In this document: piece by piece, positions 19,790 to 63,882 of the stretch | Numbering within the stretch: position 1 is the stretch's first letter | Layout: each line of letters starts with the position of its first letter | NCBI GenBank assembly: GCA_045631885.1 | Contig: JAZQVN010000013.1 | Location: 21,242 to 85,241 of the forward strand | Origin: Bacilli bacterium | GTDB lineage: Bacteria; Bacillota_I; Bacilli_A; RFN20; CAG-826 | Reading direction: 5' to 3' | Length of the DNA stretch: 64,000 bases | Program-made: the position numbers and the translations under genes | The notes under the pieces: generated by a model | The model's input: only the letters and a program-made list of their open reading frames with translations | What the model was told of the DNA's origin: nothing | Databases searched by the model: none

Positions 19790-19792
19790 AGA

Positions 19793-21421: not shown

Positions 21422-21422
21422 A

Positions 21423-23384: not shown

Positions 23385-23385
23385 A

Positions 23386-24426
23386 TTATTTCTTCGCCCC
23401 CATTCTAATTCTTGGATCGATAAATCCATATGATAAATCAAGGAAGACACCAGCGGTTAAGCTGATTAATGTGAATAACGCCATATCAACGAATAAGACG
23501 TTATAGTCTTGATTTTGTAAGGCAGTGGTAAATAATTTACCAATACCAGGAATACCATATAAGTTTTCAAGAATCATGGAACCACCTAAGATTCCGATGA
23601 ATTCCGCTAAGATGGATGGAACGATTGGAACCATCGCATTCTTTAAAGCGTGTCTAATAATTGCTTGTTTTCTGGTTAAGCCTTTAGTTCTCGCTAAGAG
23701 TAAGTATTCGCTTTCCATAACTTCACAAAGTTCGGCACGAACAGAACGGCAGTAGCCGCATATTGAACCAAACGATAAGACAAAGACTGGGATAACATAA
23801 CCTAAGACTTGGTCGCTCGTTGGATCGGTTGGATTTGGCCACTGTGTTGGTAGCCAATGCATTTGGTAAGAGAAGAAATAAATAGAAAGAGTAATTAAAA
23901 CAAAGCCAGGAACAGAAATGAAAATCATGACTGTTGTAGAAATGATGTTATCTGTCATTTTGTTTTTCTTTAAAGCCGCCCAGATGCCTAAAGCGATACC
24001 AATTGGCACGGAGAAGACGACTGATAAAATGTTAATTTTAATTGAGAATGGAAGTTTTTGCATAATGATGTTAATAACTTCCACGTTTGGATCGATAAAT
24101 GTGGATCTACCCCAGTTCCATTCAGTGAAAATGTTTTTCACCCAGGAAAAGTATTGAACCATAATTGGTGTTTGATAGAAATAATATGTAGTCTTTCCAC
24201 CATCAGGAGCGTATGACCAGAGGCAATCTCCATAACCCGGCATTTCCGACTCAAATCTCAAGACGAAACCATCATGCACTTGGCTCATATAGTAACCATA
24301 CATGCTCTGATTGGTACCGATTGGTCTTTGGAAAGGAAGCAACTTCATCAAGATGAACGTTAACGACAAGATGATGAATGCGGTGAAAAAGGCCAATATT
24401 AATCTTTTAATCGTGTATTTAATCAT
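23386..24426 (-). CDS. oppB: Oligopeptide ABC transporter permease OppB
   Basis: It has six TMs and the EAA motif region ...LLARTKGLTRKQAIIRHALKNA.... Confidence 0.85.
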   Translation of the reverse strand: MIKYTIKRLILAFFTAFIILSLTFILMKLLPFQRPIGTNQSMYGYYMSQVHDGFVLRFESEMPGYGDCLWSYAPDGGKTTYYFYQTPIMVQYFSWVKNIFTEWNWGRSTFIDPNVEVINIIMQKLPFSIKINILSVVFSVPIGIALGIWAALKKNKMTDNIISTTVMIFISVPGFVLITLSIYFFSYQMHWLPTQWPNPTDPTSDQVLGYVIPVFVLSFGSICGYCRSVRAELCEVMESEYLLLARTKGLTRKQAIIRHALKNAMVPIVPSILAEFIGILGGSMILENLYGIPGIGKLFTTALQNQDYNVLFVDMALFTLISLTAGVFLDLSYGFIDPRIRMGAKK

Positions 24427-24481
24427 AATAATTACTTTTTCTACTTTTCGTTAAATTTGCTATGTCTATAAGACTGTTAAA

Positions 24482-24519
24482 GGATTAGCGGCGCCACATA
24501 GCGAGGCGCTCGCTAATCC
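24482..24519 (-). promoter_or_regulatory. GC-rich intercistronic stem-loop between oppA and oppB (partial terminator or mRNA stabiliser)
   Basis: GGATTAGCGGCGCC-acatagcga-GGCGCtCGCTAATCC is a stem of about 14 bp in otherwise AT-rich DNA, 38 nt after the oppA stop. Confidence 0.5.
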
Positions 24520-24556
24520 TATTTTCAAATACTTTGAATGTATCTACTAAAATCGA

Positions 24557-27500
24557 TTAGTCGTTACCTGGATAGAGGTCGTCTAAGGATTCTAAGTATT
24601 CAGAAGCATCAATACCTGTTTGATATGTTGGATCGCTATCGACACCGAACATTGTGGTGACGAAGTATAAGTCGAATCCGACATAACCATAACTGAAGGC
24701 AACTGCGTTAACAGCTGTGTTGAATGGAGCTAATGTGGAAGCGTTGAATGTAACAACGTATCTGACATAACCATCAGCAACACCAGATTGATCTTCAGCT
24801 TTAACACAGGAATCACATTCTGCTTCGAGGTATCCAGCGTTGGAAATCGCTTCTGGATAACCGAAGAAGACTAAGCCTGCAAATTGTGTCTTGATGTCTC
24901 CACCGGAGATGCTAACTTCTAAAACGTCAAGTGTAACGGTGACTTTATCTTCACTAATACCGAATTCGACAGAGTCTTCATCGTATTCGTATGGGATAGC
25001 TTCGTTACGGCCGTTAACGATGTAAGCACCTTGGTCAGCAGCTTGCCATAAAGCATCGAATGAATAGAATTCATCTTTGAAGCTTAATGTTGGGTCAACT
25101 GCGTTGGTGTCTAAGCCCCAGTTAAGGGTGAAACCAGAGGAGTTATCACTTCTTAAAACTTCTAAGAAGTTGAGTGGGTTGAGTGTATTACCAGAGATGG
25201 AACCGAAGCCAATGTCGAATTGACCGAGCATCATCTTGTTGTAGTAAACATCAGACCATTCAGCACCGACCCATGGGACAACTTTCAATTTGAGTGGGTT
25301 GTCATCTGTGTTGAAAGCATCTTCGAAATATTTCTTTAATGTCGCGTGAGTTCTATCAATTTGAGATTGAGTTTGCCATGCGATTTCGATTTCGATTTCA
25401 TCGCCTTCTTCATAGAAGCCATCTTCGATTAATTCTTCAGCAGCAGTTTTGAAGGCTTCTTTAGCTTTCGCTAAGGAATAACCGTATTCATCTGTACCAG
25501 CAGCTTCACCGATAATGGAAGCAACAGCATCCTTATGGGTTTGTGTGGAATTGTAAGCAATACCATTTTCTGGGTCAGACATATAAGCGGAACCGAAGTA
25601 GTTAGCTGTTGGAGTTCTACCTTCAGATTCAGCTAATTCAGCTCTGTTAATAGCGAAGGATAAACCAGAAACGAAGTTCTTATTGTTCATCGCTGGTTCA
25701 ACTTCCCAGTAATCAGATTTTGGAGTTTGTGTAACAGAACCGTTAACACCGAATAATTGTTCCCAAGTATCAGCATCACATGTGTTGAGGTTCAACTTAT
25801 AAGTTGAGCTATCAGCTGTTTGTGTTCTGTAAGGAGCATTGGCTGGATCATCTAATTTTGTGGATGGGATACCAGCGGCGTGTAACTTCTTAGCAAAGAA
25901 TTCTTTGTAAGCAGCTTCTTGGTCTGTCTTTTGGGCAGCTAAGATGTTGATATGGACACCTTGGATTGCATAGTGTTCATCTTCATCTTCCCAGTTTTCG
26001 TTTCTCGCGAAGACGATTTGTTGATCTTTGTCCCAAGCTTCAACGGTGTATGGACCTGTGGAGAGCCAGTGATCTAGTGGTGTTAAGGAACCATCAGCAT
26101 TGGATCTACCCCAAGTAGCAACACCTTCTGCAAAGTCACCACCACCGATTGTGGTAATGAATTCGGCTGGAACTGGTGCGAACATACTGCTGGATAAGTA
26201 GTACATTGCATAGAATTGTGTACAAGCCATATTGAATTCGAATTGGATCCAATCTTGACCATCGTGTGTGGCGGTCTTGATACCAATCTTATCCCAAGCA
26301 GCTTGTGTGAAGCCTTTTGCGGAAGCTTCGTAGAAGGCTTTGGCACCTTTGATGGAGCCGGAACCTGTTAAGTTTTCAGCAGATCTAGCTAAACCGTAGG
26401 ATTGGGTGTAGTAGATTTGATATGGAGTGACGTAGTCTTCTAATTTAACTTCTCTGTTATTGAAGGCTGCGTATGTTGTTGAACGAGTTCTGTATTTGAG
26501 AGCAGAACCAGTCTTGACTGGGATTTCCCACTTGGTCGCCATTTGTGTGGATTCATTTAAGTTCATCGCGACTGGACGATCGTTTGTGGCTAAATCTCCG
26601 ACCCATTTGTAACCATCTTTGGTATCGTTCATGTATGTGGTGTAGTAGCCACCAGCAACATAACCGATTAAATTACCAACGACAGAACCCTTATCATCCA
26701 TGTAGTTAAGGTTCTTTGGATCGTCTGTTTCATAGGTGTGGTAGTATCTCTTCCATTCTTGTTTGCTTTCACCTTCGAGGTCAGCATTGATGGAACCGGA
26801 AGATAAGACACCGAATCCGAAACCTGGAATATAGGTTTCTGTACCTTTAACAACGCTATCTTGGTACATGACGAAGCCGCCATCACCATAGAGTGTTAAA
26901 CCTGTTAATTTGTTTTCAACAGCGTATTTTTCTAACGCGCCTAAGATTTGTTCTCTTTCAGTAGCATTAGAGTAGACGAATGATCTGGCACCGTTAGCTG
27001 GGGTATGGGAACCGGCTGCTAAGACTGTGACGTTACATTCAGCGGATTTTTCACCAGCTGTGAAGATGATGGTCGCTTGACCAGCACCAACTGCGGTGAG
27101 TGTTGCACCAACAACTGTTTCGCCGTCTTCGCCAAGTTTTGGAGCGACGGTAACAACATCTGTATCGCTGGATTTGAATTCGAGTTCGTAATCAGAACCA
27201 CCGAAATCCTTAACTGTAGCAAGGATGTCAGCTGTGTGGAAGTTTTCACTTTCGAGAACTAAGACAGCACCTGTTTGGTTAAGGGATAAACCTCTGACGT
27301 ATGGTGCGACGACTTCGACTTCGAGTTCAGCTTTCTTTGTTGCATCAAATGTTGATGTAGCAATGATTTTGGCTTTGCCTGCAGCAAGACCGGCCGCAAA
27401 GTAGTTGCCAGCGCTTTCGAGAATAGCGAGAACGCTATCATCGGAAGATGTAACTTTATAACCTTTTAAACCGTCGGCTTTGCCAACTGTCTTGACGCTA

Positions 27501-27934
27501 ACTGAGATATAAGCGGCGTTTGCATACTTTTCATCGAGAAGAGCAACTTCATCGTTTAAGTCTTGGATAGCGACAGAAATTCCTGTAACTTCTGGAACAA
27601 CAGCAACTGTGACTTCACATTTTGCTTCGAAGCTACCTGCTTTTGCAGTGATTGTTGCGGAGCCAGCGGCGATAGCTGTGACTTCACCATTAGCAACTGT
27701 TGCGATCTTTTCATCACTGGATGTCCATGTGACTGTTTTATCAGTAGCATTGTCTGGTAAAACTGTGGCGTTTAATGTGCCTTTACCACCAACTAATAAA
27801 GACAATTCGCTTTTATCTAAGCTGATAGATGTAACGGCAACTTCACCTTGTTGACCACAGGCGGCTAATGACACTGTTCCACCAATAAGGAATAATGAGG
27901 AAGCAAGGGCCAATAATAATTTTTTGCCTTTCAT
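24557..27934 (-). CDS. oppA: Oligopeptide-binding lipoprotein (family-5 SBP, OppA-like) with N-terminal tandem Big_2 (bacterial Ig-like) domains
   Basis: The lipobox is LAAC. Several about 80-aa Big_2-like repeats (..VTSISLDKSELSLLVGGKGTLNATVLPDNATDKTVTWTSSDEKIATV..) are followed by a large SBP_bac_5-like domain. It is the first gene of oppBCDF. Confidence 0.8.
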   Translation of the reverse strand: MKGKKLLLALASSLFLIGGTVSLAACGQQGEVAVTSISLDKSELSLLVGGKGTLNATVLPDNATDKTVTWTSSDEKIATVANGEVTAIAAGSATITAKAGSFEAKCEVTVAVVPEVTGISVAIQDLNDEVALLDEKYANAAYISVSVKTVGKADGLKGYKVTSSDDSVLAILESAGNYFAAGLAAGKAKIIATSTFDATKKAELEVEVVAPYVRGLSLNQTGAVLVLESENFHTADILATVKDFGGSDYELEFKSSDTDVVTVAPKLGEDGETVVGATLTAVGAGQATIIFTAGEKSAECNVTVLAAGSHTPANGARSFVYSNATEREQILGALEKYAVENKLTGLTLYGDGGFVMYQDSVVKGTETYIPGFGFGVLSSGSINADLEGESKQEWKRYYHTYETDDPKNLNYMDDKGSVVGNLIGYVAGGYYTTYMNDTKDGYKWVGDLATNDRPVAMNLNESTQMATKWEIPVKTGSALKYRTRSTTYAAFNNREVKLEDYVTPYQIYYTQSYGLARSAENLTGSGSIKGAKAFYEASAKGFTQAAWDKIGIKTATHDGQDWIQFEFNMACTQFYAMYYLSSSMFAPVPAEFITTIGGGDFAEGVATWGRSNADGSLTPLDHWLSTGPYTVEAWDKDQQIVFARNENWEDEDEHYAIQGVHINILAAQKTDQEAAYKEFFAKKLHAAGIPSTKLDDPANAPYRTQTADSSTYKLNLNTCDADTWEQLFGVNGSVTQTPKSDYWEVEPAMNNKNFVSGLSFAINRAELAESEGRTPTANYFGSAYMSDPENGIAYNSTQTHKDAVASIIGEAAGTDEYGYSLAKAKEAFKTAAEELIEDGFYEEGDEIEIEIAWQTQSQIDRTHATLKKYFEDAFNTDDNPLKLKVVPWVGAEWSDVYYNKMMLGQFDIGFGSISGNTLNPLNFLEVLRSDNSSGFTLNWGLDTNAVDPTLSFKDEFYSFDALWQAADQGAYIVNGRNEAIPYEYDEDSVEFGISEDKVTVTLDVLEVSISGGDIKTQFAGLVFFGYPEAISNAGYLEAECDSCVKAEDQSGVADGYVRYVVTFNASTLAPFNTAVNAVAFSYGYVGFDLYFVTTMFGVDSDPTYQTGIDASEYLESLDDLYPGND

Positions 27935-30738: not shown

Positions 30739-32595
30739 TTATTGAATATAATTACCGACAAATAAACTATTCTCTTTGAATGATGAAGATATGTCGTAAG
30801 TATATCCATCCATAAAGGATGACGATAATAAATCGACACTCTTATTGTTATTACCATCAGAGAATAAGATACAGTCATAGTCACTCACATTAAGTGAATA
30901 AGTGAAATAACCATTTGATTTGCTCATTGCCTGTCCTGGCCAGCTCTTTAATTCTTTTTCTAAGGATAAATTGCTATTCCAGGCATAAACATAAACATTA
31001 GACCAATTAGATTTTACTTTTAAAGTAACTGAATAGTTATTATCAATATTTAGTAATCTTTTAACATCCACTCTGCCATATCCTAATTGACTACTCGTAG
31101 CAATCGAGGAAGTTGTTATTTTATAACAAGAATTATATAAATCAGTTTCAAATTCGCTCACTCCTTTAGATGGATATTTTTCAAAATATAACGCAGCTAA
31201 TCCAGCGACAATTGGAGAGGCAAAAGATGTGCCATTCCATCCTCCATCATATAAAACTTGTTTGCCGTTCCTTTGGAAGTTACAAATATTAAACATATTT
31301 TCCGCTGGGGCGAAAACATCAGCGAATTGATAGGAAGACGATGAATTATATGAACTGCCTGTCCAGATTTCTCCATTACTGTTATTAGCTAATCCACCAC
31401 AACCAATCACTCCTTTTGAAGCTCCTGGGAAAGTGTATTCCGTTGGAATACCAGCTTCTCCACCATTACCAGCGGCGGAGCAAACCGCCACTCCTTTATT
31501 TCGACAATAGGCAATAGGTTCATCAAATACTGTTGATAAATCGCTACCATCATTAACTAAATCACCATCGTAGTTATAATATGAACCAATGGAAATGGTG
31601 ATAACTTTAGCCCCATTATCTGCCGCGTATTTAAAACCTTTAACGATACTTTGAGGTTTTCCATCTGTTTTAATTAACATTAAATTCGCCTCGGGAGCGA
31701 CACCAATAACACCCTTGTTATTGATTGCTGCCGCGGCTACACCCGCGCAAAATGTTCCGTGAGAATCTGATAAATCATGGACGTAATTGATTCCTACATT
31801 TGTAGTGACACTACTTCCGTTATATGTAAAAGATGCGCTCTTTGTAGATATCTTGCTATTACCATTTATATCTTTAAAATCTTCATGATAGGCATCAAAA
31901 GCTTTATCAATAACTGCGATTGTGACATTTCTTCCGCGATAATCTTTCCACGCACTATAAATGTCGCCAATATGGTTGAGATAATATTGTCTACCAATAT
32001 ATGGTTCATTAAACACTGTTTGAGCGGTTATAGCTTTATTGATTGTCACTATATAAGTAGTGTTTTTTGTCACATTACCTTCGGTATATGACACAATTAC
32101 TGTTCCACCATCTTCAGTTAATAAAGAAGGATCGACAGTGAAATTAGTCACTTGTTTATGGCTTTCATCAGTGTAATAAGCGGTAACTATTAATCCGTTA
32201 TAGTTAAACTCATCAACACTAGCGAAAGTGGTCTGATAATCACCAGAAAGAACGATATAACTTAGCTTTGCTAGTTGTTCACTGATAGAAATGCTATATT
32301 GCGCTTGAGCGCTTTTACTATTCTCTTTATATGTGACAGTCACTTCTTGAGTGCCAACATATGACATATCTGGTTGGCTAACGATATAATCGTCCACTAC
32401 TTTATTGCTCTTATCTGAATATGAAGCGGTGACAATTAAACCATCGTAATTAAACGCATCGCCTTTACTAAATGAAGTTTGATAATTTCCTGATAAAGAA
32501 ATCGACGTTAAATAAACTGATGGAGTTGAGGAACCACCACTACAACCGGTGATAAAAAAGAATAAGCAAGTAAAAATAGTTAATATTTTTTTCAT
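30739..32595 (-). CDS. Subtilisin-like serine protease lipoprotein (S8) with two N-terminal about 85-aa repeat domains
   Basis: The lipobox is ITGC. The triad motifs are VIDKAFD, HGTFCAGVAAAA and GTSFASPIVAGLAALY. The tandem repeat is L(T/S)SI(S/V)LSGxYQTxFxxxDxFNYxGLIVTAxYxD. Confidence 0.85.
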   Translation of the reverse strand: MKKILTIFTCLFFFITGCSGGSSTPSVYLTSISLSGNYQTSFSKGDAFNYDGLIVTASYSDKSNKVVDDYIVSQPDMSYVGTQEVTVTYKENSKSAQAQYSISISEQLAKLSYIVLSGDYQTTFASVDEFNYNGLIVTAYYTDESHKQVTNFTVDPSLLTEDGGTVIVSYTEGNVTKNTTYIVTINKAITAQTVFNEPYIGRQYYLNHIGDIYSAWKDYRGRNVTIAVIDKAFDAYHEDFKDINGNSKISTKSASFTYNGSSVTTNVGINYVHDLSDSHGTFCAGVAAAAINNKGVIGVAPEANLMLIKTDGKPQSIVKGFKYAADNGAKVITISIGSYYNYDGDLVNDGSDLSTVFDEPIAYCRNKGVAVCSAAGNGGEAGIPTEYTFPGASKGVIGCGGLANNSNGEIWTGSSYNSSSSYQFADVFAPAENMFNICNFQRNGKQVLYDGGWNGTSFASPIVAGLAALYFEKYPSKGVSEFETDLYNSCYKITTSSIATSSQLGYGRVDVKRLLNIDNNYSVTLKVKSNWSNVYVYAWNSNLSLEKELKSWPGQAMSKSNGYFTYSLNVSDYDCILFSDGNNNKSVDLLSSSFMDGYTYDISSSFKENSLFVGNYIQ

Positions 32596-42634: not shown

Positions 42635-42735
42635 AATTATCTATTAAACAATTTTATCACAATTAATTCCTTAAATTGTCGTAAACCGTAAATAAATATA
42701 AAATAAAAATATAAAGATTGATAGGAGATAATTTT

Positions 42736-44877
42736 ATGAAAAAACTCTTAGATTTTCTTAAGAGTGTCAAGATTGCCTTAATTGTACTAGGCTCTCTTTT
42801 GGTCACTACTTTTACTTGTATGGGGTTAGCCCATGGTATTCAACAAGACTGGGGTAACGTAAACGTTACAAGCGGTCAAATCACTGCGACCACAGTGGAT
42901 AATGAAGAATATTCCATGGGTTATAAGTTATATATCCCAAAAGGTGTTGACGCAAATAACCCTGCACCAGCAGTTTTGTGTTTACATGGTTATCAAAACG
43001 ACCATGAAACAAGTGCTGGTTATGCAATAGAATTTGCCAGACACGGCTATGTTGCTTTAGCAATTGATGAATTTGGTCATGGTTCCACGAACATCGGTAT
43101 GATGTATAGAGGATACACAAACCACAAAGTCGCTAAAGTGTGCTATGGATGGGATAGTCCAGATGATGGAACATACTCATTCTCCAGTGGACCAGACAGA
43201 TATAAATTATTGATGAACTTCTCTTGTTTAGATTTCTTCATCGATAAATATTCTCATTCTGTTGATAAATCAACAGGAGAAATCTTACCAGAAAGTGTTA
43301 AAGACGCTTCAATGGGTGGCACATTTGCATACTTATGGTTAGCAAGTCAAAACTATGTTAAGGCCAATCAAATAGCGGTCACAGGTCACTCAATGGGTAC
43401 TTGGGCATCTTGGTCAGTATCCGCGGCAATGTGCGAAGCTTTATTAACAAAAGGCGGCGTTGAATATAACATCACTCCAAGAGCCACAATATTACAAGCT
43501 GGTGAAATCTTTAAAACCACGACTGATGTTCTTGGCCGTATGGCGTATGACTCTGATGAAGATGGAATCCCAGAAATCTATTGGAATAACCCGTTATTAT
43601 TAAGCGCTAAATACGATGAATTTAACTACTTCAGAGACTACGCGAAAACTCCAATTAACGATTCCGTTAAACACGGTGACGCAAACGCTAACTTCTTAAA
43701 TGTTCCTAATGATCAAGCTGATTTCAATAAAACATTCCATGAAAACTTCCTCGCAGGAACTTCAAGAAGACGTAATTTATATGTCACTAACCATAGATTA
43801 TTAACTCACCACGATGGTGCTATCACTGATACATTAAACTGGGTCAGCGCTTCTACAGGTGTTACATTAACCATTGATGCCGCTAACCACACATTTATGG
43901 CGAAAGAATGGTTAGTCTTCTTTGCAATGCTTGCCGCTATCGCTTCTGCTGTTGCGATGGTTATGGTATTTAAGGGCTTCAAATGGTTTGAACCAGTATT
44001 CGCTGGTGTACCAAATAGACCAGAAAAAGAAAAGAAAGGTTGGAAATGGTGGAAAGCTGCTCTTATCACTATCGCTATTTCAGCCGCCACATATCCATTC
44101 TTAACTCAATTAGGCCAAGGTTTATTCCCACTACCAGAAGGCTTATTTGCTTTAACAATTGGTAATGGTTTCTTAATTTGGTATCTCTTCTTAATCATTG
44201 TTATGCTCTGCTTCACACTCATTCCATGGTTTAGAAAAAAGAAGAGAGGTGGACTTGATACAGACTTTGTCGATATGGGTATGGCTAGAGATGACATCGA
44301 CCATAGACATAAATTTGACTGGGGTCTATTAGGTAAATCCGCGATTGTCGTTTGTGCGGGTATTCTTTGGATGTATCTCCAAGTTATCTTATGCCAAGCC
44401 ATCTTCCAATTAGACTTAAGATTCATTTGGCCGTTCTTCAAAGGATTCAGCTTCCATAGATTCTTAATGTTCTTAGTCTACTTACCAATGTTTGCTATCT
44501 TCTTTGTTCTTAATAACTCTAAAATCTTTGCTTCAAACAGAGTTCCAGGAACAGGAGAAAAAGGATTCAAAGCCTTCTTCAAAGTTTGGTGGAAATACGC
44601 TCTTTGTATGGTGGGTGGAATCTTATTAATTATCTTAATTGAATACGTCCCATTCTTCATGCAATTAGGGCCAGGTGCAGACTTAATGTTCTCCACGACT
44701 TTCGGTGGTCCGTTCATGTCGTTATTAATCGTTTTCGCTCCTCAAGTTATCGTCTTCTCATTCATTTGTACATATTGTTATAGGAAGACAGGAAATGTCT
44801 TTGTCGGAGCGTTGCTCGTTGCCATCTTAGCATGTTGGATTGTAACAGGCGGATCTGCAATTTTATACACATTTTAG
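42736..44877 (+). CDS. Secreted alpha/beta hydrolase domain fused to a C-terminal polytopic (8-10 TM) membrane domain
   Basis: It has a signal/anchor. The hydrolase core runs HGYQNDHETSAGY...IDEFGHG...VTGHSMGTW. The C-terminal half is strongly hydrophobic. The ATG at 42736 has an AGGAG RBS. The ORF could begin at the TTG at 42718. Confidence 0.6.
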   Translation: MKKLLDFLKSVKIALIVLGSLLVTTFTCMGLAHGIQQDWGNVNVTSGQITATTVDNEEYSMGYKLYIPKGVDANNPAPAVLCLHGYQNDHETSAGYAIEFARHGYVALAIDEFGHGSTNIGMMYRGYTNHKVAKVCYGWDSPDDGTYSFSSGPDRYKLLMNFSCLDFFIDKYSHSVDKSTGEILPESVKDASMGGTFAYLWLASQNYVKANQIAVTGHSMGTWASWSVSAAMCEALLTKGGVEYNITPRATILQAGEIFKTTTDVLGRMAYDSDEDGIPEIYWNNPLLLSAKYDEFNYFRDYAKTPINDSVKHGDANANFLNVPNDQADFNKTFHENFLAGTSRRRNLYVTNHRLLTHHDGAITDTLNWVSASTGVTLTIDAANHTFMAKEWLVFFAMLAAIASAVAMVMVFKGFKWFEPVFAGVPNRPEKEKKGWKWWKAALITIAISAATYPFLTQLGQGLFPLPEGLFALTIGNGFLIWYLFLIIVMLCFTLIPWFRKKKRGGLDTDFVDMGMARDDIDHRHKFDWGLLGKSAIVVCAGILWMYLQVILCQAIFQLDLRFIWPFFKGFSFHRFLMFLVYLPMFAIFFVLNNSKIFASNRVPGTGEKGFKAFFKVWWKYALCMVGGILLIILIEYVPFFMQLGPGADLMFSTTFGGPFMSLLIVFAPQVIVFSFICTYCYRKTGNVFVGALLVAILACWIVTGGSAILYTF

Positions 44878-55391: not shown

Positions 55392-57854
55392 CTAGAATAC
55401 AAATCTTGCTCCTGTAATTAGGTCTTGATATTTTTCTTCAATTAAGATTGGCTTATCATCATGGATGATAGAGTTAATCTTATTTTGATAACTCTTATCA
55501 CTGGCCAATCTTCTTCCATCAATTCTGATATAGACGAATCTAGAGGTATCAAAGTTATATGTACCACTATCATTCGCGTCTAAAGCGATATTAAAGCCTA
55601 AATCTAAGGCGTAATTGACCGCTTCTAAGTGATTGATGATGTCTCTTTCTTTCGCTTCAAATATCACTCGATTGAGAGGGATATGCTTGCTTTCAAAGAA
55701 ACCAATCAATGTATCGAATAATTGTTTGTCTAATCCTTCTTTACCAATTGATGTAACATATATCGTTTCATTTTCATAATTGAAGGATCTGACGAATTTA
55801 TCCATGAAGGTGATATATTTCTTATCAATCTTCACATACAAACTGATTTGATCATCTGGGATGTGATTATGGTTTTCATCTAAGAAACGATAACCGACGA
55901 ACGCCATTTTGTATTTATTCTCTAAGTCTTTAATACGGAAATATGAAACTGGGATTTCATTATTCTTGAAGGCTTCTTCAACGATATCCATATAATGGAG
56001 ATGGTCATCAATCGGGGTTGGTGCTTCATCAACACGGTATAACATGCCTTTCTTCGTCACTCTCATGAATAAGGTTCTACTTAATGAATCTAATGAGAAT
56101 AATGTATTAACTTCTAATGGGTAACTTAATAAGATAACCTTTGGTAAGAAGTGGAAGGCTGTATCGTTTAATTCAAATGTTTCTAAGAAGGCTCTTGAAA
56201 CTGCTTTGGCGATTCTAATTGCTTCCGCCATTGAGGCGTATTTTAAGATATAGACGAATTCATCGACATCTTTACGATATAAGCTATCAGTTAAGCCATA
56301 GACTTCTAAGCCTTCAACAATCTTATTAACGATTCCTTCGTTATCTAATTTGTATTTGCTCGCTAATTGAGTCAATGAGTCAATCTTGAAGATGACTAAA
56401 TAACCCTTCGCATTCGCGTTAGATAATAAGCCTAATAATCTTTCGTTTAATGCTTTTCTATCATTAATAAATGGTTTCTTTTCATTTAATAAGTAGATTG
56501 TGTTCTTGTTATTATCCGCTTCCACGACTCTCTTATATAAGTTAGAAGACAACATATATGTTTTGGTGTTTTCTTGTTTTAATGGACAATCTTTACATGG
56601 AGATTCTCTATCATATAAAGTTTCATAACAATATGAACCCACTAGTTTGTTGGAGTATCTTTCATTTAACTTTCTAGAAGCGTGAGTGACGATATAATCT
56701 TCATCAACTTCATAAGATAACGAATCATGTAATTCTTCTAATCTATTAAATCTAGATTCCGCTTCTTCGACTTTCATCTTATCGATTTCAATTAAGACTA
56801 AGTTATTTAACATCGCGATCACTTTATTGAGTTTATAAAGTAAGCGAGGTGTGACTGGCACTTCTTCGTGTTCATTGGCGAATACGACATGAGCTTGTTT
56901 GCCCATATATTTAATTCCGGATAGTTTTAACCATGTCTTAAATTCTCTATCTTCGATTTCAGAAATTAATAATGCACCTTTATAGTTAACAATACGTAAA
57001 TATTCTTCATCGACGAGGACCGCCATATGGGTGAATGGGAGATATGGGAAGATATCGATTAAGTAATCTTCTATTAAGTTATCTTTAGATAAATCAATGT
57101 CTTTATATTTGTTGATGACATTGATAAAGACTTCTTTTTCACTATTTCTATCGTAGATCAAAAGTCTTTCTTCATCTTGATTTTGTTCTTGATTAATTAA
57201 TTCAAGAATTTCATCTAATGAATATTCGTCATAATAGAATAATTTAATAGAGCATTCTTTTCTTTCTTCCACGAATTTACGGAGATAATCTTCTAATTCG
57301 CTCTTATCAAAAGTATCGAGCACTAAATCAAAGCTCTTTTCATTTTGTCCAATGAAGCAATTTGGATATTTATCAACGATTCGTTCTAATGTTCTTTCTT
57401 TGACACCATTGATACGGAGGATCGCGCATTTCTCTAATCCGGATTTAATAATATATTTTCTTAATAACACGAAGAATTCATTTCCATCGTATAAAGTGGA
57501 ATATTCTAATGTGGTGTCATTAATGACAATATCATTAACCACACTAGCGATTTCTTTTAATCCTTCATCACCAGAATTAGTGTTGGCGATTAATAATTGG
57601 TTATGTTGATATTTCTTTAAAGATTTAACGATATTCTCTTTATCAATTTCTAAAGCTTTCTCTTTATCTTTTCTAGAAACATTCATCGCGATATAGAAAC
57701 CGCACATACCGAGTAGGAAAATCACGCTTAAAGCGATGAATAAGATTAATAAATCTTTCATCACAATAGCCATCACTAAAGAAGCAATGGATAAGGCTAA
57801 AAAGATAACCATCCACACGAAGTAAACATTATTTTGTTTATTTTTCTTCTTCAT
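55392..57854 (-). CDS. Membrane-anchored protein with a degenerate GGDEF domain followed by a degenerate EAL domain (c-di-GMP receptor/regulator-like)
   Basis: It has two N-terminal TMs. The GGDEF-like region ..YLVIFKIDSLTQLASKYKLDNEGIVN...YRKDVDEFVYIL..SMAEAIRIAKAV has KDVDEF in place of GGDEF. The EAL-like C-terminus has ..NIALDANDSGTYNFDTSRFVYIRIDGRR.. in place of IALDDFGTGYSSL..LKID. Confidence 0.55.
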   Translation of the reverse strand: MKKKNKQNNVYFVWMVIFLALSIASLVMAIVMKDLLILFIALSVIFLLGMCGFYIAMNVSRKDKEKALEIDKENIVKSLKKYQHNQLLIANTNSGDEGLKEIASVVNDIVINDTTLEYSTLYDGNEFFVLLRKYIIKSGLEKCAILRINGVKERTLERIVDKYPNCFIGQNEKSFDLVLDTFDKSELEDYLRKFVEERKECSIKLFYYDEYSLDEILELINQEQNQDEERLLIYDRNSEKEVFINVINKYKDIDLSKDNLIEDYLIDIFPYLPFTHMAVLVDEEYLRIVNYKGALLISEIEDREFKTWLKLSGIKYMGKQAHVVFANEHEEVPVTPRLLYKLNKVIAMLNNLVLIEIDKMKVEEAESRFNRLEELHDSLSYEVDEDYIVTHASRKLNERYSNKLVGSYCYETLYDRESPCKDCPLKQENTKTYMLSSNLYKRVVEADNNKNTIYLLNEKKPFINDRKALNERLLGLLSNANAKGYLVIFKIDSLTQLASKYKLDNEGIVNKIVEGLEVYGLTDSLYRKDVDEFVYILKYASMAEAIRIAKAVSRAFLETFELNDTAFHFLPKVILLSYPLEVNTLFSLDSLSRTLFMRVTKKGMLYRVDEAPTPIDDHLHYMDIVEEAFKNNEIPVSYFRIKDLENKYKMAFVGYRFLDENHNHIPDDQISLYVKIDKKYITFMDKFVRSFNYENETIYVTSIGKEGLDKQLFDTLIGFFESKHIPLNRVIFEAKERDIINHLEAVNYALDLGFNIALDANDSGTYNFDTSRFVYIRIDGRRLASDKSYQNKINSIIHDDKPILIEEKYQDLITGARFVF

Positions 57855-58914: not shown

Positions 58915-60297
58915 TCAGTTCTTCTTAGTATTCTTTGGTTTCTTTTCTTTTTTCTCTTTGAGTTTTTCTAATTGGCTTTCTAAATCATCATTAGCCATTC
59001 TTAGTCTTTTAATTTCATTAATTAAAGTATCGATATCTTTCTTGACGCTTTCGATCATTCTCTTACGATGTTCCGCATCGCGATATGCGACTTCATCTTT
59101 ATCCTTAACAATCGCTTTGTGCACATTAACACGCGCGTCTTTTTGATTCTTTAACTTCTGATGTAATTTATCGTCTTTTAGACGAACTTGTTCGCTAGAT
59201 AATGGTAAGTGAATCTTATCTGTCTTTAAGGCTTCTGGATAAGCATCGAATAAGAATCTTGAATCCATATATGTTTCATCTTCTAATGTGAAGATCACTT
59301 GAGGAGTATATTTCTTTTCGATCTTTTCAGGGATTAATTCATCATTTACTTTATTCGTGTGAAGCGCGGATACACTCATCGCGATATAAGAATTGATTTC
59401 ATCTAAATATTCTTTGGAGAATTTTTGATTCACTTCAGTGATATCGTAACTAATACCTAATTCTTCATAATCTTCTAAGAAGCACCAGAATTCATAGGCT
59501 CGATGATAATCAGGGTTTTTCACTAACATATTCGTCATGTGAATTGGAGAAGTGACTTCTCTAGCCCCTTTCATCTGAGTCATAAACGGAGAAGCGAAAT
59601 ATCCAGAACATCTATTCTTTAATTCATTGAGTTTATTTAATAAGTAGTCGTTATGGTCTTTTTCACCATCATCATTAGATGGGATAGACACTTTGATTCT
59701 AGAATCAACTTCATAAGTGACATTACCAATAACAGTTTTGTTATGAATTAATAACAAATCGCTATCACGAGTTTCACCATGTTCAAGAACATAGTTATAT
59801 CTCTTTTGAATGAAAGATAAACATCTCTTAATGAGAGTCATAACAAATCTATTTTCATAAATCGCTGTATCTGTTTCCGCGTAGATTGTTAAGACTTTTT
59901 CTGGAATAACTTCGCCATTATCATCGATATCTTGAACAAATTGGCTATGAGTGGCGAAATGTCTAATTGATAAAGAGGAAACTCTTTTGGCTAATCCAAC
60001 TTGAACCAGTTCAGCTTGCTCTTTAATAAATGTTCTCGGGTTAGCGATAATCTTTTCAATCGCTTGTAAACCACCTTCTAATTGTTCAATAATCGAAGCA
60101 TCAAATTTCTTAGATTCGGTTCTTTGAGTTTGTCTGATGTAATTTTCTCCACCAGAAAGGACACCTTTTAATTTATCGAATTCCGCGTTCTTATTAACAT
60201 TTATGTTAACTTCGCGATAAGCCTTGCTGGCTTTTTCCATGTTTAAAGAGGTGGGGTTTAATCTAGATGAAACTGATGTCTTTTTACTTTTGGCCAT
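58915..60297 (-). CDS. Hypothetical partner protein of the McrB-like GTPase (possible McrC-like fold with no evident PD-(D/E)xK motif) and a C-terminal coiled coil
   Basis: It is 460 aa, starts 3 nt after the McrB-like gene and ends 3 nt before sipW. The segment ..AIYENRFVMTLIKRCLSFIQ.. faintly resembles the McrC N-terminal motif. Confidence 0.35.
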   Translation of the reverse strand: MAKSKKTSVSSRLNPTSLNMEKASKAYREVNINVNKNAEFDKLKGVLSGGENYIRQTQRTESKKFDASIIEQLEGGLQAIEKIIANPRTFIKEQAELVQVGLAKRVSSLSIRHFATHSQFVQDIDDNGEVIPEKVLTIYAETDTAIYENRFVMTLIKRCLSFIQKRYNYVLEHGETRDSDLLLIHNKTVIGNVTYEVDSRIKVSIPSNDDGEKDHNDYLLNKLNELKNRCSGYFASPFMTQMKGAREVTSPIHMTNMLVKNPDYHRAYEFWCFLEDYEELGISYDITEVNQKFSKEYLDEINSYIAMSVSALHTNKVNDELIPEKIEKKYTPQVIFTLEDETYMDSRFLFDAYPEALKTDKIHLPLSSEQVRLKDDKLHQKLKNQKDARVNVHKAIVKDKDEVAYRDAEHRKRMIESVKKDIDTLINEIKRLRMANDDLESQLEKLKEKKEKKPKNTKKN

Positions 60298-60299
60298 AA

Positions 60300-61844
60300 T
60301 TATCTAGCATTTTTCATTAATGTTTTAATCTTGTCTCTACTGAGTAAGAATTCGTTTAAGCCATAGAGTCTAGTTAATTCTTCATCTAAAGCGACGAGTT
60401 CTTCTTTTAATAGACCGACGCTTAACACTTCAAATTTCTTTAATACTTTTGTCTTAAAGATGAAGTCATAAGCCTCTAATTCAGTTCCTCCACAGGCGAT
60501 ATAAGCAGGAACAAAGGAGTAGAGTTGTTTCATGATACGGTTACCAAAGGCAAGCTTGAAATGTTCAATGACAAAGTTATCGAGTTCAGCGAATTTCGCG
60601 ATGCTTTCTTCACTGACCGGATGTTCTTCTCTCGCCTTCGCGTATAATCCTAATAAATATTCCGCGGGCACAGGTAAGGCTTCTGTGTATGGAGCGTCGA
60701 ATGGTTGTGCTTTATTATCGAAGAATAAGGACACCGCTCTATCGTAGACCTTATCGGTGATAGTGAATGTGCTATCATCGTTATTCGCAGTACCAACAAA
60801 CCAAATATTTTGTGGGATTAATAATTTGCCACCTTCTAAGTGTTTTGGATCATCTTCTTTACCTGCAGCGATAACATCAACAATCCATTCTTTTGGATCA
60901 GGCATTTCCATGATGGATAAGAATTCAGCAAAATAGTATTCAATACGAGCTAAGTTCATTTCATCGAGAACGACGACGGAAATATCATTACGATATGTCG
61001 CTTCATAACAGGCTCTTAAGAATTCTGTTTCAGTGAATTTCTTGGTGAAGTCATTATAGTAACCTAATAATTCACTTCTATCTCTCCAAGATGGTTGAAC
61101 TGGACAAATAGATGCACTATGACGGAGGAATCGACCCATACAATATGGTAAAGATGTTTTACCTGTACCAGAGATACCTTCTAAGATAATCAAATGTCCT
61201 GTTCCCATTGCGGCGAAGAATTGTCTGACCACTTCTGGGGCATAGTATAACTTCATTTGAGAACAAGCGAAGTTTCTAAATCTTTCACAAATTTCCTTTA
61301 AGGAAATAGATGTAGAATCCGCTGGGAGTTCCGCAACGTAGTTACCTTCTTTATATTTATCATCGACTGTATAGAGCTTAGCAAATCTGCCTCCCACGAC
61401 GGAATCATCAGCAGCACCTTTTCCACGACCTCCGCCACCACCGGCTTCAATCACTGGAGAATAAGTACCATCAGCGTTACGTGATAAGGCTAAGATGCGA
61501 TCTTTTTCTCTTGTCACATCGTATAATTCGAGGTTTAATCTTTCGATTTCCTCTTTCATCTTCTCTTCATTTGACCCTTTAGCGCCTTTTTTGAAAATCT
61601 TTCTAATCGCCCAGATGAGTAATAACACGATTGAGGCGATGAAAAGCACACCAATAACAACGAAGATGACGAACATAATTGTTCCCACCACTCCAAATTG
61701 AGGTTGGTTTTCCGCGAAGACTAAAATGTAATCATCAGGGGAAAAGCGATAAGTTCCTTTGAAGATATTACCGATGTGAGTAAATAAGGTAGTAAAGACT
61801 CCGTTTACATAAAGTAGAAAACTTTGAAATCCATTCATAAACAA
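60300..61844 (-). CDS. Membrane-anchored McrB-family AAA+ (AAA_5) GTPase-domain protein
   Basis: It has N-terminal TM helices and a Gly-rich linker. Walker A is EGISGTGKT. ..VVLDEMNLARIEYYFAEFLSIME.. matches McrB FIIDEINRANLSKVFGE..LME, and ..NIWFVGTANNDDST...DRAVSLFF.. matches McrB IIGTMNTADRS...RRRF. Confidence 0.75.
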   Translation of the reverse strand: MFMNGFQSFLLYVNGVFTTLFTHIGNIFKGTYRFSPDDYILVFAENQPQFGVVGTIMFVIFVVIGVLFIASIVLLLIWAIRKIFKKGAKGSNEEKMKEEIERLNLELYDVTREKDRILALSRNADGTYSPVIEAGGGGGRGKGAADDSVVGGRFAKLYTVDDKYKEGNYVAELPADSTSISLKEICERFRNFACSQMKLYYAPEVVRQFFAAMGTGHLIILEGISGTGKTSLPYCMGRFLRHSASICPVQPSWRDRSELLGYYNDFTKKFTETEFLRACYEATYRNDISVVVLDEMNLARIEYYFAEFLSIMEMPDPKEWIVDVIAAGKEDDPKHLEGGKLLIPQNIWFVGTANNDDSTFTITDKVYDRAVSLFFDNKAQPFDAPYTEALPVPAEYLLGLYAKAREEHPVSEESIAKFAELDNFVIEHFKLAFGNRIMKQLYSFVPAYIACGGTELEAYDFIFKTKVLKKFEVLSVGLLKEELVALDEELTRLYGLNEFLLSRDKIKTLMKNAR

Positions 61845-61852
61845 AGCTCCTT

Positions 61853-62980
61853 TTAATCAATGATGCCAGTAAATGAGATATCAACATCAAAACTGGCGGA
61901 TGCTATTTCATCAGTCATATCAATATCCCAACCTTCGACATAGATACTAATAACGATTCTTTTCGTTTCTCCTTCTTTAATATGACAGATAGGAGTAAGT
62001 TTTCCTGCCAAATAGTTGACTTGATTGAATGCAAATGATTTTAGCGGATATGACTCTTCTTTTTTAATTTCGACTTGGTGGTTATTTGTGTCTAAGAAAG
62101 CACTACGATTATCGTTAACAAACGCCACTTGTTTAATGCCTTTCGCATGATTAGCAATAAAGGTGTTTTTGTTATCTTTTAATGGTTCAAGTTCGTTAAC
62201 TTCTCCATCCACGTAATTTGGCGTAGATTCATATTCACCATAAAGGATTTCTTTATTATCCTCATCGTAATCATAGTAGCCATCTTTATCTAAATCTAAG
62301 ATGCCACCGAAGTATGTTTGTTCACTGTTACCTAATGTATCAGCGGGCTTACAAACAACATATTGTTCATTCGTTAAGAATGAGTATCTGACAGCGTTTA
62401 CGACATTATCGAGTTTATCAGCGTGTAATTCACCATCACTCTTGGCTTCCGCTTCCACGTTTTTATCGTGATTAGGAGCTATGCCAGTGTTTTCCGATAA
62501 ATAGATATCCATTTCTCGTCCAGCGGTAAATACAAATGTATTTTGGACATAGAAATTGTCTTCGTCATCTTGAGTGGCCAAACTTGGTTTCTCATTAATC
62601 TTCGGTCTATAGTTTCTTCTAAATTGTGGTAATAATGTCTCATCAGTTTTCGTAGTTTCGTTATACCAATCATCTTGATACATACCACTGACTTGGCCTA
62701 AGTATTTGCCTTCGATACCTAACTGCTCTTTTGTGTAGCCATCTCCTTCTTCGTCCTCAACTGGATTTCCATCTTTATCTAATAGTTCGAGTTTTAACCA
62801 TGCGTTTTCTTCCAAATCGACACGCATATTCAAACTACCGATAATCGCTATATCGAGCATGTTATACCATGCCGCAGTAGCGACTGAGGAGGTGGCCACA
62901 CCAAAAGCAAAAAGTACTGCACATACAGCCATAAACTTAATCTTCTTATTTTTCAAAGGTGTAGATCTTTTAAAAGGCAT
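61853..62980 (-). CDS. TasA/camelysin-like secreted protein with a SipW-cognate signal peptide
   Basis: The N-terminus ..ATSSVATAAWYNMLDIAIIGSLNMRVDL.. aligns with TasA ..GGTWAAFNDIKSKDATFASGTLDL... Length is 375 aa. Confidence 0.6.
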   Translation of the reverse strand: MPFKRSTPLKNKKIKFMAVCAVLFAFGVATSSVATAAWYNMLDIAIIGSLNMRVDLEENAWLKLELLDKDGNPVEDEEGDGYTKEQLGIEGKYLGQVSGMYQDDWYNETTKTDETLLPQFRRNYRPKINEKPSLATQDDEDNFYVQNTFVFTAGREMDIYLSENTGIAPNHDKNVEAEAKSDGELHADKLDNVVNAVRYSFLTNEQYVVCKPADTLGNSEQTYFGGILDLDKDGYYDYDEDNKEILYGEYESTPNYVDGEVNELEPLKDNKNTFIANHAKGIKQVAFVNDNRSAFLDTNNHQVEIKKEESYPLKSFAFNQVNYLAGKLTPICHIKEGETKRIVISIYVEGWDIDMTDEIASASFDVDISFTGIID

Positions 62981-62982
62981 TA

Positions 62983-63882
62983 TTATATACCGAAGTGTAA
63001 TGACATAAGCATATAACCTGTGAATGGGAATGGATCTGGGTCTCTCTTTTCAAAGTAACAAACAAATGTAAATCTGAGTGAATCTTTGATTTCGACTGCA
63101 TTATCAACAATTCTCTTCTCGTTTGAGAAGTTGAATTTTTCACAATATCCATCAACACCATACTTTGTGGCAGGTTTGATACTATTATTTTCTTCATCAA
63201 TGACATAATCCGAGACGATTTCTCTGTGATTACTGTCGCCGTTATCGTACGCTTGTGTGAAAGGATTCGCCTGATTCCTTTCCTTGCCATAATAGTAATT
63301 ATGGATAACACCATCTTGGTCCTCGGTTTGAACGAGAACTCTAGCGCTTTCTAATAGTTGGGTATTTTCATATCCTTCTAAGTCAACTGCGTAGTTAACT
63401 CTTGTGGTCATTTCATTTGTCTCATTGGTGAGATAAACAGTGAACACTAAAGCGAGGTCACTAGGATCTTCAACCGCTTTTTTAGCTCTTCCTATATCCA
63501 CTAAATGGTTTTCATTCATGTTCGTGGAGCCGGTTAACTTCTTGTTAACGTTTAGATAATTAAGATATTCTTCAACATTTGACGCGGTGGTTTGTTCCAC
63601 TGTTCTAAGTGGTTCGCCTTGCGCATATGTCACAGGACTATCTTGCCCTTCTTCTTCACCTTCTCCGGATTCTCCTGAACCGAAACCAGTAAGGTGCATT
63701 TTGAAGTTAGAATTATCATCGCTTAATGGGTTATCAATACGAATTGTAAACGCTGAATTACCTTGAGGGAGTAAAGAAAGGACGAGAAAAAGGACTGCTA
63801 CACCAGATGATACAGCTAGACCAATTAAGCCCAGTCTCTTTAATAATCTATATCTCGCAATCTTTTTCGCTTCGCCTGTCAT
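62983..63882 (-). CDS. TapA-like (TasA anchoring/assembly) candidate, first gene of the operon
   Basis: It has a signal-anchor followed by ..GNSAFTIRIDN.. (compare TapA ..SAAFHDIE..). It is an acidic secreted protein with an AGAGGAGAGG RBS. Confidence 0.4.
   Translation of the reverse strand: MTGEAKKIARYRLLKRLGLIGLAVSSGVAVLFLVLSLLPQGNSAFTIRIDNPLSDDNSNFKMHLTGFGSGESGEGEEEGQDSPVTYAQGEPLRTVEQTTASNVEEYLNYLNVNKKLTGSTNMNENHLVDIGRAKKAVEDPSDLALVFTVYLTNETNEMTTRVNYAVDLEGYENTQLLESARVLVQTEDQDGVIHNYYYGKERNQANPFTQAYDNGDSNHREIVSDYVIDEENNSIKPATKYGVDGYCEKFNFSNEKRIVDNAVEIKDSLRFTFVCYFEKRDPDPFPFTGYMLMSLHFGI

Follow-up and report, generated by a model that had tools for sequence, protein, structure and literature searches.

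Proteins with degenerate GGDEF and EAL domains are already known as a class. In Escherichia coli, CsrD, YdiV and BluF (YcgF) have GGDEF or EAL folds without catalysis or canonical nucleotide binding, and act through macromolecular interactions. A second body of background concerns the CoCoPALM systems, named by Bell et al. (eLife 2024) and considered there to be likely linked to pilus assembly (PMC11090510). These combine an McrB-like nucleoside triphosphatase (NTPase) that has an N-terminal transmembrane (TM) segment and coiled coil (FtsB-like), a coiled-coil DUF2357 homologue of McrC, and a protein of the signal-peptidase family; they are given two sentences, with analysis deferred to a later paper, and the main text and two supplements mention neither a GGDEF, EAL or PAS component nor a link to cyclic di-GMP (c-di-GMP) (PMC11090510). 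No published follow-up on CoCoPALM was found, and literature searches on SipW/TasA with GGDEF/EAL, or on Erysipelotrichaceae with c-di-GMP, gave nothing relevant. Here we describe a protein of 820 amino acids (aa) encoded from an ATG start at positions 55392-57854 (-) of a 64,000-nucleotide stretch (the window) of the Bacilli contig JAZQVN010000013.1, as given in its list of open reading frames (ORFs). The protein sits in an operon whose core fits CoCoPALM, and we give a probability of roughly one in two to the reading that it is a catalytically dead, membrane-tethered cytoplasmic sensor or scaffold of a CoCoPALM-type machine that gates the assembly of the machine's cargo.

The family to which this protein belongs is invisible to standard annotation. 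The target has 24 close homologues among 5.8 billion clusters, none of them (0/24) with a precomputed Pfam domain, and its full-length relatives come to 17 representatives at 50% identity in 1.84 billion proteins. Pfam gives two matches in the target, both sub-threshold and both in the correct order and register: GGDEF (PF00990; 17.1 bits against a cut-off of 23.8, E=5e-3; aa 467-556 on profile positions 13-107) and EAL (PF00563; 18.8 bits against a cut-off of 31.3, E=1.1e-3; aa 674-792 on profile positions 61-191). A weak EAL match recurs in 18/21 family members (best E=2e-4) and a GGDEF match in 3/21 (E<=0.1). Neither the target protein nor the family profile found a meaningful match among PDB sequences, and homology was therefore established through structure and through intermediate sequences. 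An AlphaFold2 (AF2) model was built from a 21-sequence alignment (mean predicted local distance difference test score, pLDDT, 72; ~90 in the EAL region), and its Foldseek matches in the PDB were almost solely tandem GGDEF-EAL structures (67 with E<=1e-3). The top match was DosP (9cmf; 4.4e-13 over 651 columns), then LapD (3pjw; 1.3e-11; also 6pwk and 6pwj) and PA0575 (3.4e-11), with RbdA, MorA and Vibrio cholerae LapD further down; matches to the single EAL domains of FimX, PdeA, RocR and BifA, and also to RbdA and MorA, had target-normalised TM-scores of 0.5-0.59. As modelled, the structure most resembles LapD and DosP.

The intermediates are a sister family of ~950-1040-aa proteins recovered by a profile search of the 1.84 billion representatives. 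In hhalign comparisons, the C-terminal half of the target family aligned to the sister family with 99.8% probability (E=1.3e-29, 341 columns), and the sister family aligned in turn to the EAL domains of E. coli DosP, PdeK and PdeH (99.7%, E=6.9e-27) and to the GGDEF domain of DosC (96.6%, E=5.3e-10), the E. coli reference sequences being taken from NC_000913.3. Several sister proteins exceed the Pfam EAL cut-off themselves (P0067 with 99 bits, P0052 with 66, P0059 with 55). When the family profile was compared by hhalign directly with single E. coli references, the correct regions were found at probabilities of 12% or less, a result superseded by the two-step chain. Through fold and transitive homology, the target belongs to the GGDEF and EAL superfamilies. 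An original prediction, made from the letters of the stretch, had described a degenerate GGDEF followed by a degenerate EAL with altered signatures, and this is borne out by the Pfam order and register, Foldseek, the hhalign chain and residue conservation in 34 family members. The strings that it quoted are also in place (YRKDVDEFVYIL...AEAIR at aa 526-547 and NIALDANDSGTYNF...VYIRIDGRR at aa 755-782), and the profile chain puts the C-terminal ~360 aa in the GGDEF/EAL families although Pfam remains below its cut-offs.

Canonical residues were mapped onto the target through the two hhalign steps, and their conservation was counted in the 34 family members. In the second degenerate GGDEF domain, the Mg-binding Asp (D327 of PleD) has become Lys (Lys490 in the target; Lys in 34/34), and the equivalents of the guanine-binding N335 and D344 are lost. 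The motif itself reads R-K-D-V-D-E-F in the target and R-K-E-E-D-E-F in the family consensus: the GG position is D529-V530 ([DE][VE] in the family, E-E in most relatives), followed by an invariant D531-E532-F533 in which D531 and E532 are found in 34/34. The inhibitory site (I-site), canonically RxxD, has become GxxD (G520-L-T-D523), with Gly at the Arg position in 23/34 and Arg in 0/34. The EAL domain can be aligned at 12 positions, which read F-F-G-R-S-E-E-D-A-R-D-E in the target against a canonical Q-E-L-R-N-E-E-D-D-K-D-E (family signature FFGxSEEDxRDE against canonical QELRNEEDDKDE). Losses include the QP Gln (F639), the EAL Glu (F652), the EAL Leu (now Gly), the metal-binding Asn (S702) and the second Asp of DDFG (A760); the target itself has the EALxR Arg, which is not conserved in the family (R in 4/34). 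The residues that are kept are E733 (30/34) and E736 (34/34), which form an ExxE, D759 (19/34), R/K777 (31/34), D779 (27/34) and E806 (21/34). Expressed in RocR numbering, E175 is changed to F, N233 to S, D296 to A and K316 to R, while E265, E268, D295 and E352 remain. The C-terminal EGVE/QG end is not alignable, and the target stops directly after the last strand. Overall, 8-10 of the 14 EAL signature positions are changed in the target family and 4-6 are retained. The original prediction had proposed this inspection of the I-site and the EAL catalytic residues, and the profile alignment finds the I-site altered and the catalytic set incomplete.

Cyclase and phosphodiesterase activity require the canonical residues, as is known from the mutagenesis literature on PleD and RocR. 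Because the residues needed for catalysis are gone, both activities should be absent from the target. Canonical c-di-GMP binding by the EAL domain appears doubtful too, because the lost residues are those that grip c-di-GMP in receptor-type EAL domains. The earlier suggestion that the protein receives c-di-GMP thus loses ground, judging from the residues: the equivalents of RocR Q161, E175, L177, R179, N233 and D296 are replaced or unconserved, and the I-site Arg has given way to Gly. The pocket that remains is under strong purifying selection (K490, D531, E532 and E736 are each found in 34/34), which argues for a retained, non-catalytic function.

The protein is anchored at its N-terminus. 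Hydropathy shows a single, continuous hydrophobic stretch of ~50 residues (aa 8-60), likewise present in 34/34 family members, and AF2 forms it into a helical hairpin whose loop has 2 residues (K34-D35) in the target and 2-4 polar residues across all 34. Given this short loop, a basic N-terminus (KKKNK) and a basic segment after the TM helices (RKDKEK), both termini are cytoplasmic with nothing exposed outside, so that aa 60-820 are entirely cytoplasmic and an extracytoplasmic domain is absent. A membrane protein had been predicted, correctly; the inside-out signalling of the LapD type that had been invoked for it does not survive the short TM loop in 34/34, the cytoplasmic location of the rest of the protein and the lack of LapG/LapA-type genes, with no LapG-like (DUF920/transglutaminase-like) gene found in the operon by Pfam or NCBIfam. 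The helical linker that follows (aa 60-115) is common to the sister family (hhalign 97.2%), and a Pfam search found no HAMP match after the second TM helix. The first degenerate GGDEF domain (aa ~120-250) has no remaining sequence signature and is seen through the fold search only: hhalign of the N-terminal region against GGDEF references gave probabilities of 0.1-1%, i.e., no sequence-level support. This N-terminal half, with its additional degenerate GGDEF, a GAF domain and a PAS domain with three conserved Cys (Cys3), was omitted from the original prediction. The complete architecture has eight modules (two TM helices, linker, GGDEF, GAF, helix, Cys3 PAS, GGDEF and EAL, the paired TM helices counted as one anchor), and this combination of two dead GGDEF domains with GAF and Cys3 PAS is previously unreported.

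The PAS domain has a motif, Cys409-x10-Cys420-x2-Cys423-Pro424 in the target, that is invariant in the family and not limited to it. The PAS segment alone (profile positions ~360-426) matches >80 unrelated PAS-containing sensors, in regions that Pfam labels PAS_4/PAS_9. Among 177 such PAS domains in 83 unrelated sensor kinases and cyclases, the three Cys are retained in 175, 165 and 161 (91-99%), and all 34 sister proteins have them as well. The general motif of the subtype is G-x2-C-Y-x9-P-C-x2-C-P, with P0058 and P0062 among its carriers. No description of a cofactor for this subtype was found; it is widespread and apparently undescribed, and is plausibly a metal or redox sensor. It is precisely in the Cys loop that AF2 is unconfident (pLDDT <50).

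The target belongs to a run of ten co-directional genes that extends from window position 63882 down to 49701 (-) with spacings of -17 to +12 nt. Three of these genes have the features given for CoCoPALM: a TM/coiled-coil McrB-like NTPase, a coiled-coil DUF2357 protein and an adjacent, conserved signal-peptidase protein. The NTPase matches PDB McrB (6hz4) with E=4.3e-4 over aa 214-385, has a hydrophobic segment at 46-85 followed by the heptad-like EEKMKEEIERLNLELYDV, and reads GTANNDDS at the McrB signature motif, which fits the NxD spacing given for CoCoPALM and the NxxD spacing alike. In the DUF2357 protein the last 60 residues are K/E-rich and heptad-like, and Pfam detected no nuclease domain. 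The peptidase has visible catalytic motifs (Ser-Met, THRLI and GDNP), weak matches to SEC11 in the PDB, and TM segments at aa 3-33 and 189-216 followed by a ~60-residue, highly charged, coiled-coil-like cytoplasmic tail; canonical SipW lacks the second TM helix and the charged tail. This tail could be where the sensor or the coiled-coil McrB/McrC-like proteins dock.

Three genes downstream of the target encode proteins that are probable secreted fibre or adhesin cargo. The 1403-aa protein carries Flg_new / Listeria-Bacteroides repeats (Pfam Flg_new, 35.1 bits), and the 294-aa protein has no sequence match in the PDB. Cargo N-termini, as read from the sequence, have a T[YF]AWFQ/AAWYN motif after a hydrophobic segment, which recalls the GT[WF]A[AY]F[ND] of TasA/camelysin. 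Neither Pfam Peptidase_M73 nor an NCBIfam SipW-cognate model matches the 294-, 1403-, 375- or 299-aa proteins of the operon (E<=1). The target had originally been placed in a TasA/SipW operon: a SipW-like peptidase is indeed there, but the TasA label finds no HMM support, and the core fits CoCoPALM instead. No intrinsic terminator was detected 3′ of the last gene.

Relatives' loci were examined within ±10 kb. The gene order is kept in loci L001-L006, L009 and L010 (34-66% identity), which include metagenomic relatives at 66% and 34% identity and two metagenome-assembled genomes (MAGs) at 36-38%, and because the order recurs while the flanking genes differ, the operon is a self-contained module. 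The 17-nt overlap between the 80-aa gene and the target is found in the same eight loci. The target is thus an invariant, translationally coupled member of the operon, in strict 1:1 co-occurrence with the machine genes. Most likely, the operon's product is a surface fibre or adhesin, which it secretes and assembles. The earlier idea that the protein gates fibre or adhesin display in response to a cytoplasmic cue is reasonable given its invariant, coupled place beside a SipW-like peptidase and signal/anchor-bearing proteins, although the LapD mechanism attached to that idea has to be given up. A Mollicutes-like genome had also been supposed; standard-code ORFs are intact, and at species level the only genome matches are to one MAG of Erysipelotrichaceae and one labelled 'uncultured Bacillales', which speaks against it.

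The sister family shows what this type of cluster looks like in other lineages. Its members have the same whole architecture as the target family (hhalign 97.2% in the N-terminal region, 99.7% in PAS, 99.8% in the C-terminal half) and are located in two homologous clusters, L011 (McrB-like protein 58% identical to that of the window; DUF2357 at 1e-109; peptidase at 4e-51) and L016 (McrB-like protein at 6e-214; DUF2357 at 1e-120; peptidase at 1e-89). Between the peptidase and the large sensor, sister clusters have two extra genes (L011:7687-10001, L016:7907-10008, L015:1-1031), one for an EAL protein with two TM helices (2TM-EAL) and one for a PNP_UDP_1 family protein. The 2TM-EAL protein of L011 (7687-9252) is canonical: it scores 223.7 bits, and EALIR, VNLS, ELTES, DDFGVG, KLD, EGVE and QG are all present. 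In L015 there is a fragment of the same protein, listed as canonical, and in L016 the protein is degenerate. The EAL domains of the sister sensors themselves form a gradient, with 14/14 canonical residues in P0139, 13/14 in P0108, 11-12/14 in about a dozen, and values down to 0-5/14; those with 11-12/14 typically have D296 changed to N, R or Q and E352 changed to V, which is a receptor-like pattern. Because sister clusters carry a canonical EAL phosphodiesterase as well as near-canonical sister EAL domains, this cluster type does have a genuine link to c-di-GMP in some lineages. Neither the canonical EAL gene nor the PNP gene of the sister clusters is present in target-type clusters. The target family represents the most reduced condition, with neither an accessory phosphodiesterase nor a PNP gene and with 4-6/14 canonical residues left in the sensor. 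It looks like a degenerated descendant of ancestors of the c-di-GMP phosphodiesterase or receptor type. Sister clusters pair a nucleoside phosphorylase family protein (PNP_UDP_1) with an EAL enzyme. The 80-aa two-TM ORF next to the target was considered as a relic of the 2TM-EAL gene at the same position, and this is unsupported (no similarity by BLASTP or phmmer).

A mechanism can be proposed for the sensor or scaffold in which the hairpin would tether the protein to the inner face of the membrane, while GAF and the Cys3 PAS would read a cytoplasmic cue (a small ligand, a metal or the redox state) and the long helices would relay the change to the GGDEF-EAL module. That module, no longer turning over c-di-GMP, might serve as a protein-interaction surface at the membrane: by contacting the membrane NTPase, the McrC-like protein or the peptidase tail, it could switch the NTPase/peptidase assembly machine on or off, and processing or assembly of signal-bearing cargo would thereby be gated. 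Several points weigh against this proposal. Support for every family member is computational, the linker is HAMP-like by eye only, and the secreted-fibre function of CoCoPALM clusters is a published prediction only. AF2 confidence is moderate (pLDDT 72 and 78.5) and falls below 50 in the PAS Cys loop and in the GGDEF-EAL linker, and for the first third of the EAL domain the residue map depends on a profile alignment in two steps (12-16% identity). Finally, a nucleotide or metal may still be bound, as the invariant ExxE, K/R-x-D and DEF residues might indicate, in which case a pure protein-interaction scaffold is too strong a claim.

This last point leads to the possibility of a receptor of the LapD/FimX type, in which the degenerate EAL or GGDEF would still bind c-di-GMP or a related nucleotide (GTP, pGpG or another cyclic dinucleotide) and gate fibre assembly, the periplasmic step being omitted. 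LapD and FimX, both c-di-GMP receptors, are among the closest structural matches, strong selection keeps half of the EAL metal/ligand pocket in place (E733, E736, D759, R/K777, D779, E806), and D531-E532-F533 is invariant in the second GGDEF domain; sister clusters, moreover, have the canonical phosphodiesterase and sister proteins with 11-14/14 canonical EAL residues, and since the partner motor is a predicted GTPase, a degenerate GGDEF that senses GTP is conceivable. However, the equivalents of RocR Q161, E175, L177, R179, N233 and D296 are F, F, G, variable, S and hydrophobic, and these are positions that contact guanine or phosphate in all characterised complexes of EAL with c-di-GMP. The I-site likewise has no Arg, GGDEF has lost the Asn and Asp that bind guanine, the sister-type canonical EAL and PNP genes are missing from target-type clusters, and a scan of ~40 further ORFs of the window turned up no gene for a GGDEF, EAL or PilZ protein. 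We consider such a receptor unlikely on balance. A related and equally tentative thought is that an undescribed signalling layer governs a novel type of McrBC-derived, SipW-dependent surface-fibre machine (CoCoPALM) in gut Bacillota: sister clusters would have bona fide c-di-GMP signalling (canonical EAL phosphodiesterase, near-canonical EAL receptor and PNP-family enzyme), while in the lineage of the window the pocket (ExxE, R/K-x-D, DEF and Lys490) would have been re-tuned, either to another ligand or so as to control the McrB-like GTPase directly. If true, this would be a natural instance in which a GGDEF-EAL module came to regulate an AAA+ motor.

The degeneration of enzymatic signatures in all four nucleotide-type domains could also mean that the protein signals nothing: it would then be a constitutive platform, an architectural subunit whose sensor-like domains are relics used for oligomerisation only. 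Strict co-occurrence and translational coupling with the machine genes are in keeping with a structural part, and the most conserved stretch, the end of the second GGDEF domain together with the linker (LSYPLEVNTLFSLDSLSRTLF...KKG.LYR.DE.P..ID), is not a ligand site. Still, the Cys3 motif is invariant, and bona fide sensor kinases and cyclases keep it in ~160-175/177 of their PAS domains; this suggests a working sensor, and the GAF fold and long signalling helices are typical of allosteric transmitters, so that a silent platform seems improbable. The remaining alternative is a defence or conflict system derived from McrBC (CoCoNuT-like), with the GGDEF-EAL protein as a membrane infection sensor. 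The McrB/DUF2357 pair is a hallmark of type IV restriction (PMC11090510), flanks vary between relatives as they do in mobile islands, and the NTPase matches the PADLOC defence-candidate model PDC-M26A at E=2.2e-41. The operon nevertheless resembles a secretion or assembly system: the DUF2357 protein has no nuclease domain that could be found, the target itself has no PADLOC match, 5/10 genes encode signal/anchor-bearing, repeat-rich proteins beside a dedicated signal peptidase, and the authors who defined the clade read it as linked to pilus assembly (PMC11090510). A role in defence is therefore very unlikely in our estimation, and the catalytically dead sensor or scaffold is the reading carried forward here.

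Coordinates of the target gene, its domains and the other genes of the operon are collected in Table 1. Elsewhere in the window, an Rfam COG3943 RNA motif (RF02941; 89.8 bits, above gathering) at 5087-5189 (+) lies directly upstream of a 535-aa RhuM/Fic-domain gene at 5409-7016 (+). Large surface-type proteins are encoded at 13811-17944 (-), 24557-27934 (-) and 30739-32595 (-): a 1377-aa subtilase with a PA domain, a 1125-aa Big_2 + SBP_bac_5 protein and a 618-aa subtilase with Big_3 + CBM26. The 1125-aa protein is an unusually large solute-binding protein that heads an Opp-like ATP-binding cassette operon (18179-27934). A 719-aa ORF with a TTG start at 42718-44877 (+) has no Pfam match at E<=1e-3.

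Table 1. Features of the target gene and its operon in window coordinates, with the basis of each assignment.
Feature	Position	Strand	Basis or remark
Target gene: membrane-anchored multi-domain protein (2TM, linker, first degenerate GGDEF, GAF, helix, Cys3 PAS, second degenerate GGDEF, degenerate EAL)	55392..57854	(-)
Two-helix membrane hairpin, aa 12-58	57681..57821	(-)	Hydropathy scan; AF2 helices 10-31 and 33-83
Helical linker, aa 60-115, HAMP-like by eye (…GDEGLKEIASVVNDI…)	57510..57677	(-)	AF2 helices H33-83 and H97-111
First degenerate GGDEF-fold domain, aa 120-250	57105..57497	(-)	Fold search; GGDEF position reads NEKSF
GAF-fold sensor domain, aa 258-335	56850..57083	(-)	Fold search
Long connecting (signalling) helix, aa 336-376	56727..56849	(-)	AF2 H336-376 in full model; H275-318 in sub-model
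Cys3-subtype PAS domain, aa 378-457	56484..56723	(-)	Profile matches, Pfam PAS_4/PAS_9, invariant Cys motif
Second degenerate GGDEF domain, aa 462-612	56019..56471	(-)	Pfam 17.1 bits, Foldseek, hhalign chain to DosC GGDEF
Degenerate EAL domain, aa 616-820	55395..56009	(-)	Pfam 18.8 bits, Foldseek FimX/RocR/PdeA, hhalign chain to DosP/PdeK/PdeH
Two signal/anchor-bearing proteins, 299 and 375 aa, first genes of the operon	61853..63882	(-)	Counterparts, same position, in L011 and L016
McrB-like AAA+ (AAA_5) NTPase, 514 aa, N-terminal TM and coiled coil	60300..61844	(-)	PDB McrB 6hz4; weak Pfam AAA_5 and NCBIfam McrB
DUF2357 (McrC N-terminal domain) protein, 460 aa, C-terminal coiled coil	58915..60297	(-)	Pfam DUF2357 33.4 bits, above cut-off of 23.3
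SipW/SEC11-type signal peptidase I-like protein, 280 aa	58070..58912	(-)	TIGR02228 E=6e-6 and SipW NF046067 E=1.7e-5, both below cut-off
Two-TM protein, 80 aa	57838..58080	(-)	Stop overlaps target start by 17 nt
Three downstream signal/anchor-bearing proteins, 294, 1403 and 191 aa	49701..55379	(-)	Counterparts in L001-L006 and L016

What is new here, relative to the known class, is a very divergent family, its architecture and its conserved association with an McrBC-derived, putatively fibre-assembling operon. The obligatory partnership with an McrB-like NTPase, an McrC-like protein and a SipW-like peptidase is the first concrete regulatory handle on CoCoPALM. The two cluster types also span a natural progression, from c-di-GMP control that works to a module that has fully degenerated, which is useful for following the fate of relic domains after the loss of their nucleotide. 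The carriers seem to be uncultured, gut-type relatives of Erysipelotrichaceae, a group in which surface structures and second-messenger signalling are almost unexplored.

Each of the known systems shares part of this picture. The tapA-sipW-tasA operon of Bacillus subtilis and the sipW-bsaA operon of Clostridium perfringens resemble the window operon in having a SipW-type (ER/archaeal-type) peptidase beside its presumed substrates, but they have neither an McrBC-like pair nor a GGDEF-EAL protein. DosP, RbdA, MorA and PA0575 have the same PAS-GGDEF-EAL order, and the GGDEF domain of DosP is also degenerate, but their intact EAL sites hydrolyse c-di-GMP, whereas the target has lost most of its signature positions. 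LapD of Pseudomonas fluorescens and V. cholerae is alike in its membrane anchor, its helical linker, its dead GGDEF followed by a dead EAL and its tie to a surface adhesin or fibre system. It differs in that a periplasmic domain between its TM helices captures the protease LapG (where the target has only its short loop), in that it binds c-di-GMP through conserved EAL residues that are replaced in the target, and in lacking the extra GGDEF, the GAF and the Cys3 PAS; the partners of the target, moreover, are an McrB-like NTPase, DUF2357 and a SipW-like peptidase and not LapG, LapA and a type I secretion system. CsrD, YdiV and BluF show no detectable specific sequence relationship to the target, their architecture and genomic context are different, and their partners (RNase E/CsrB, FlhDC and YcgE) have no counterpart in the operon. 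By analogy, however, it is this functional class, in which GGDEF and EAL folds act without catalysis through macromolecular contacts, that best fits the target's residue pattern.

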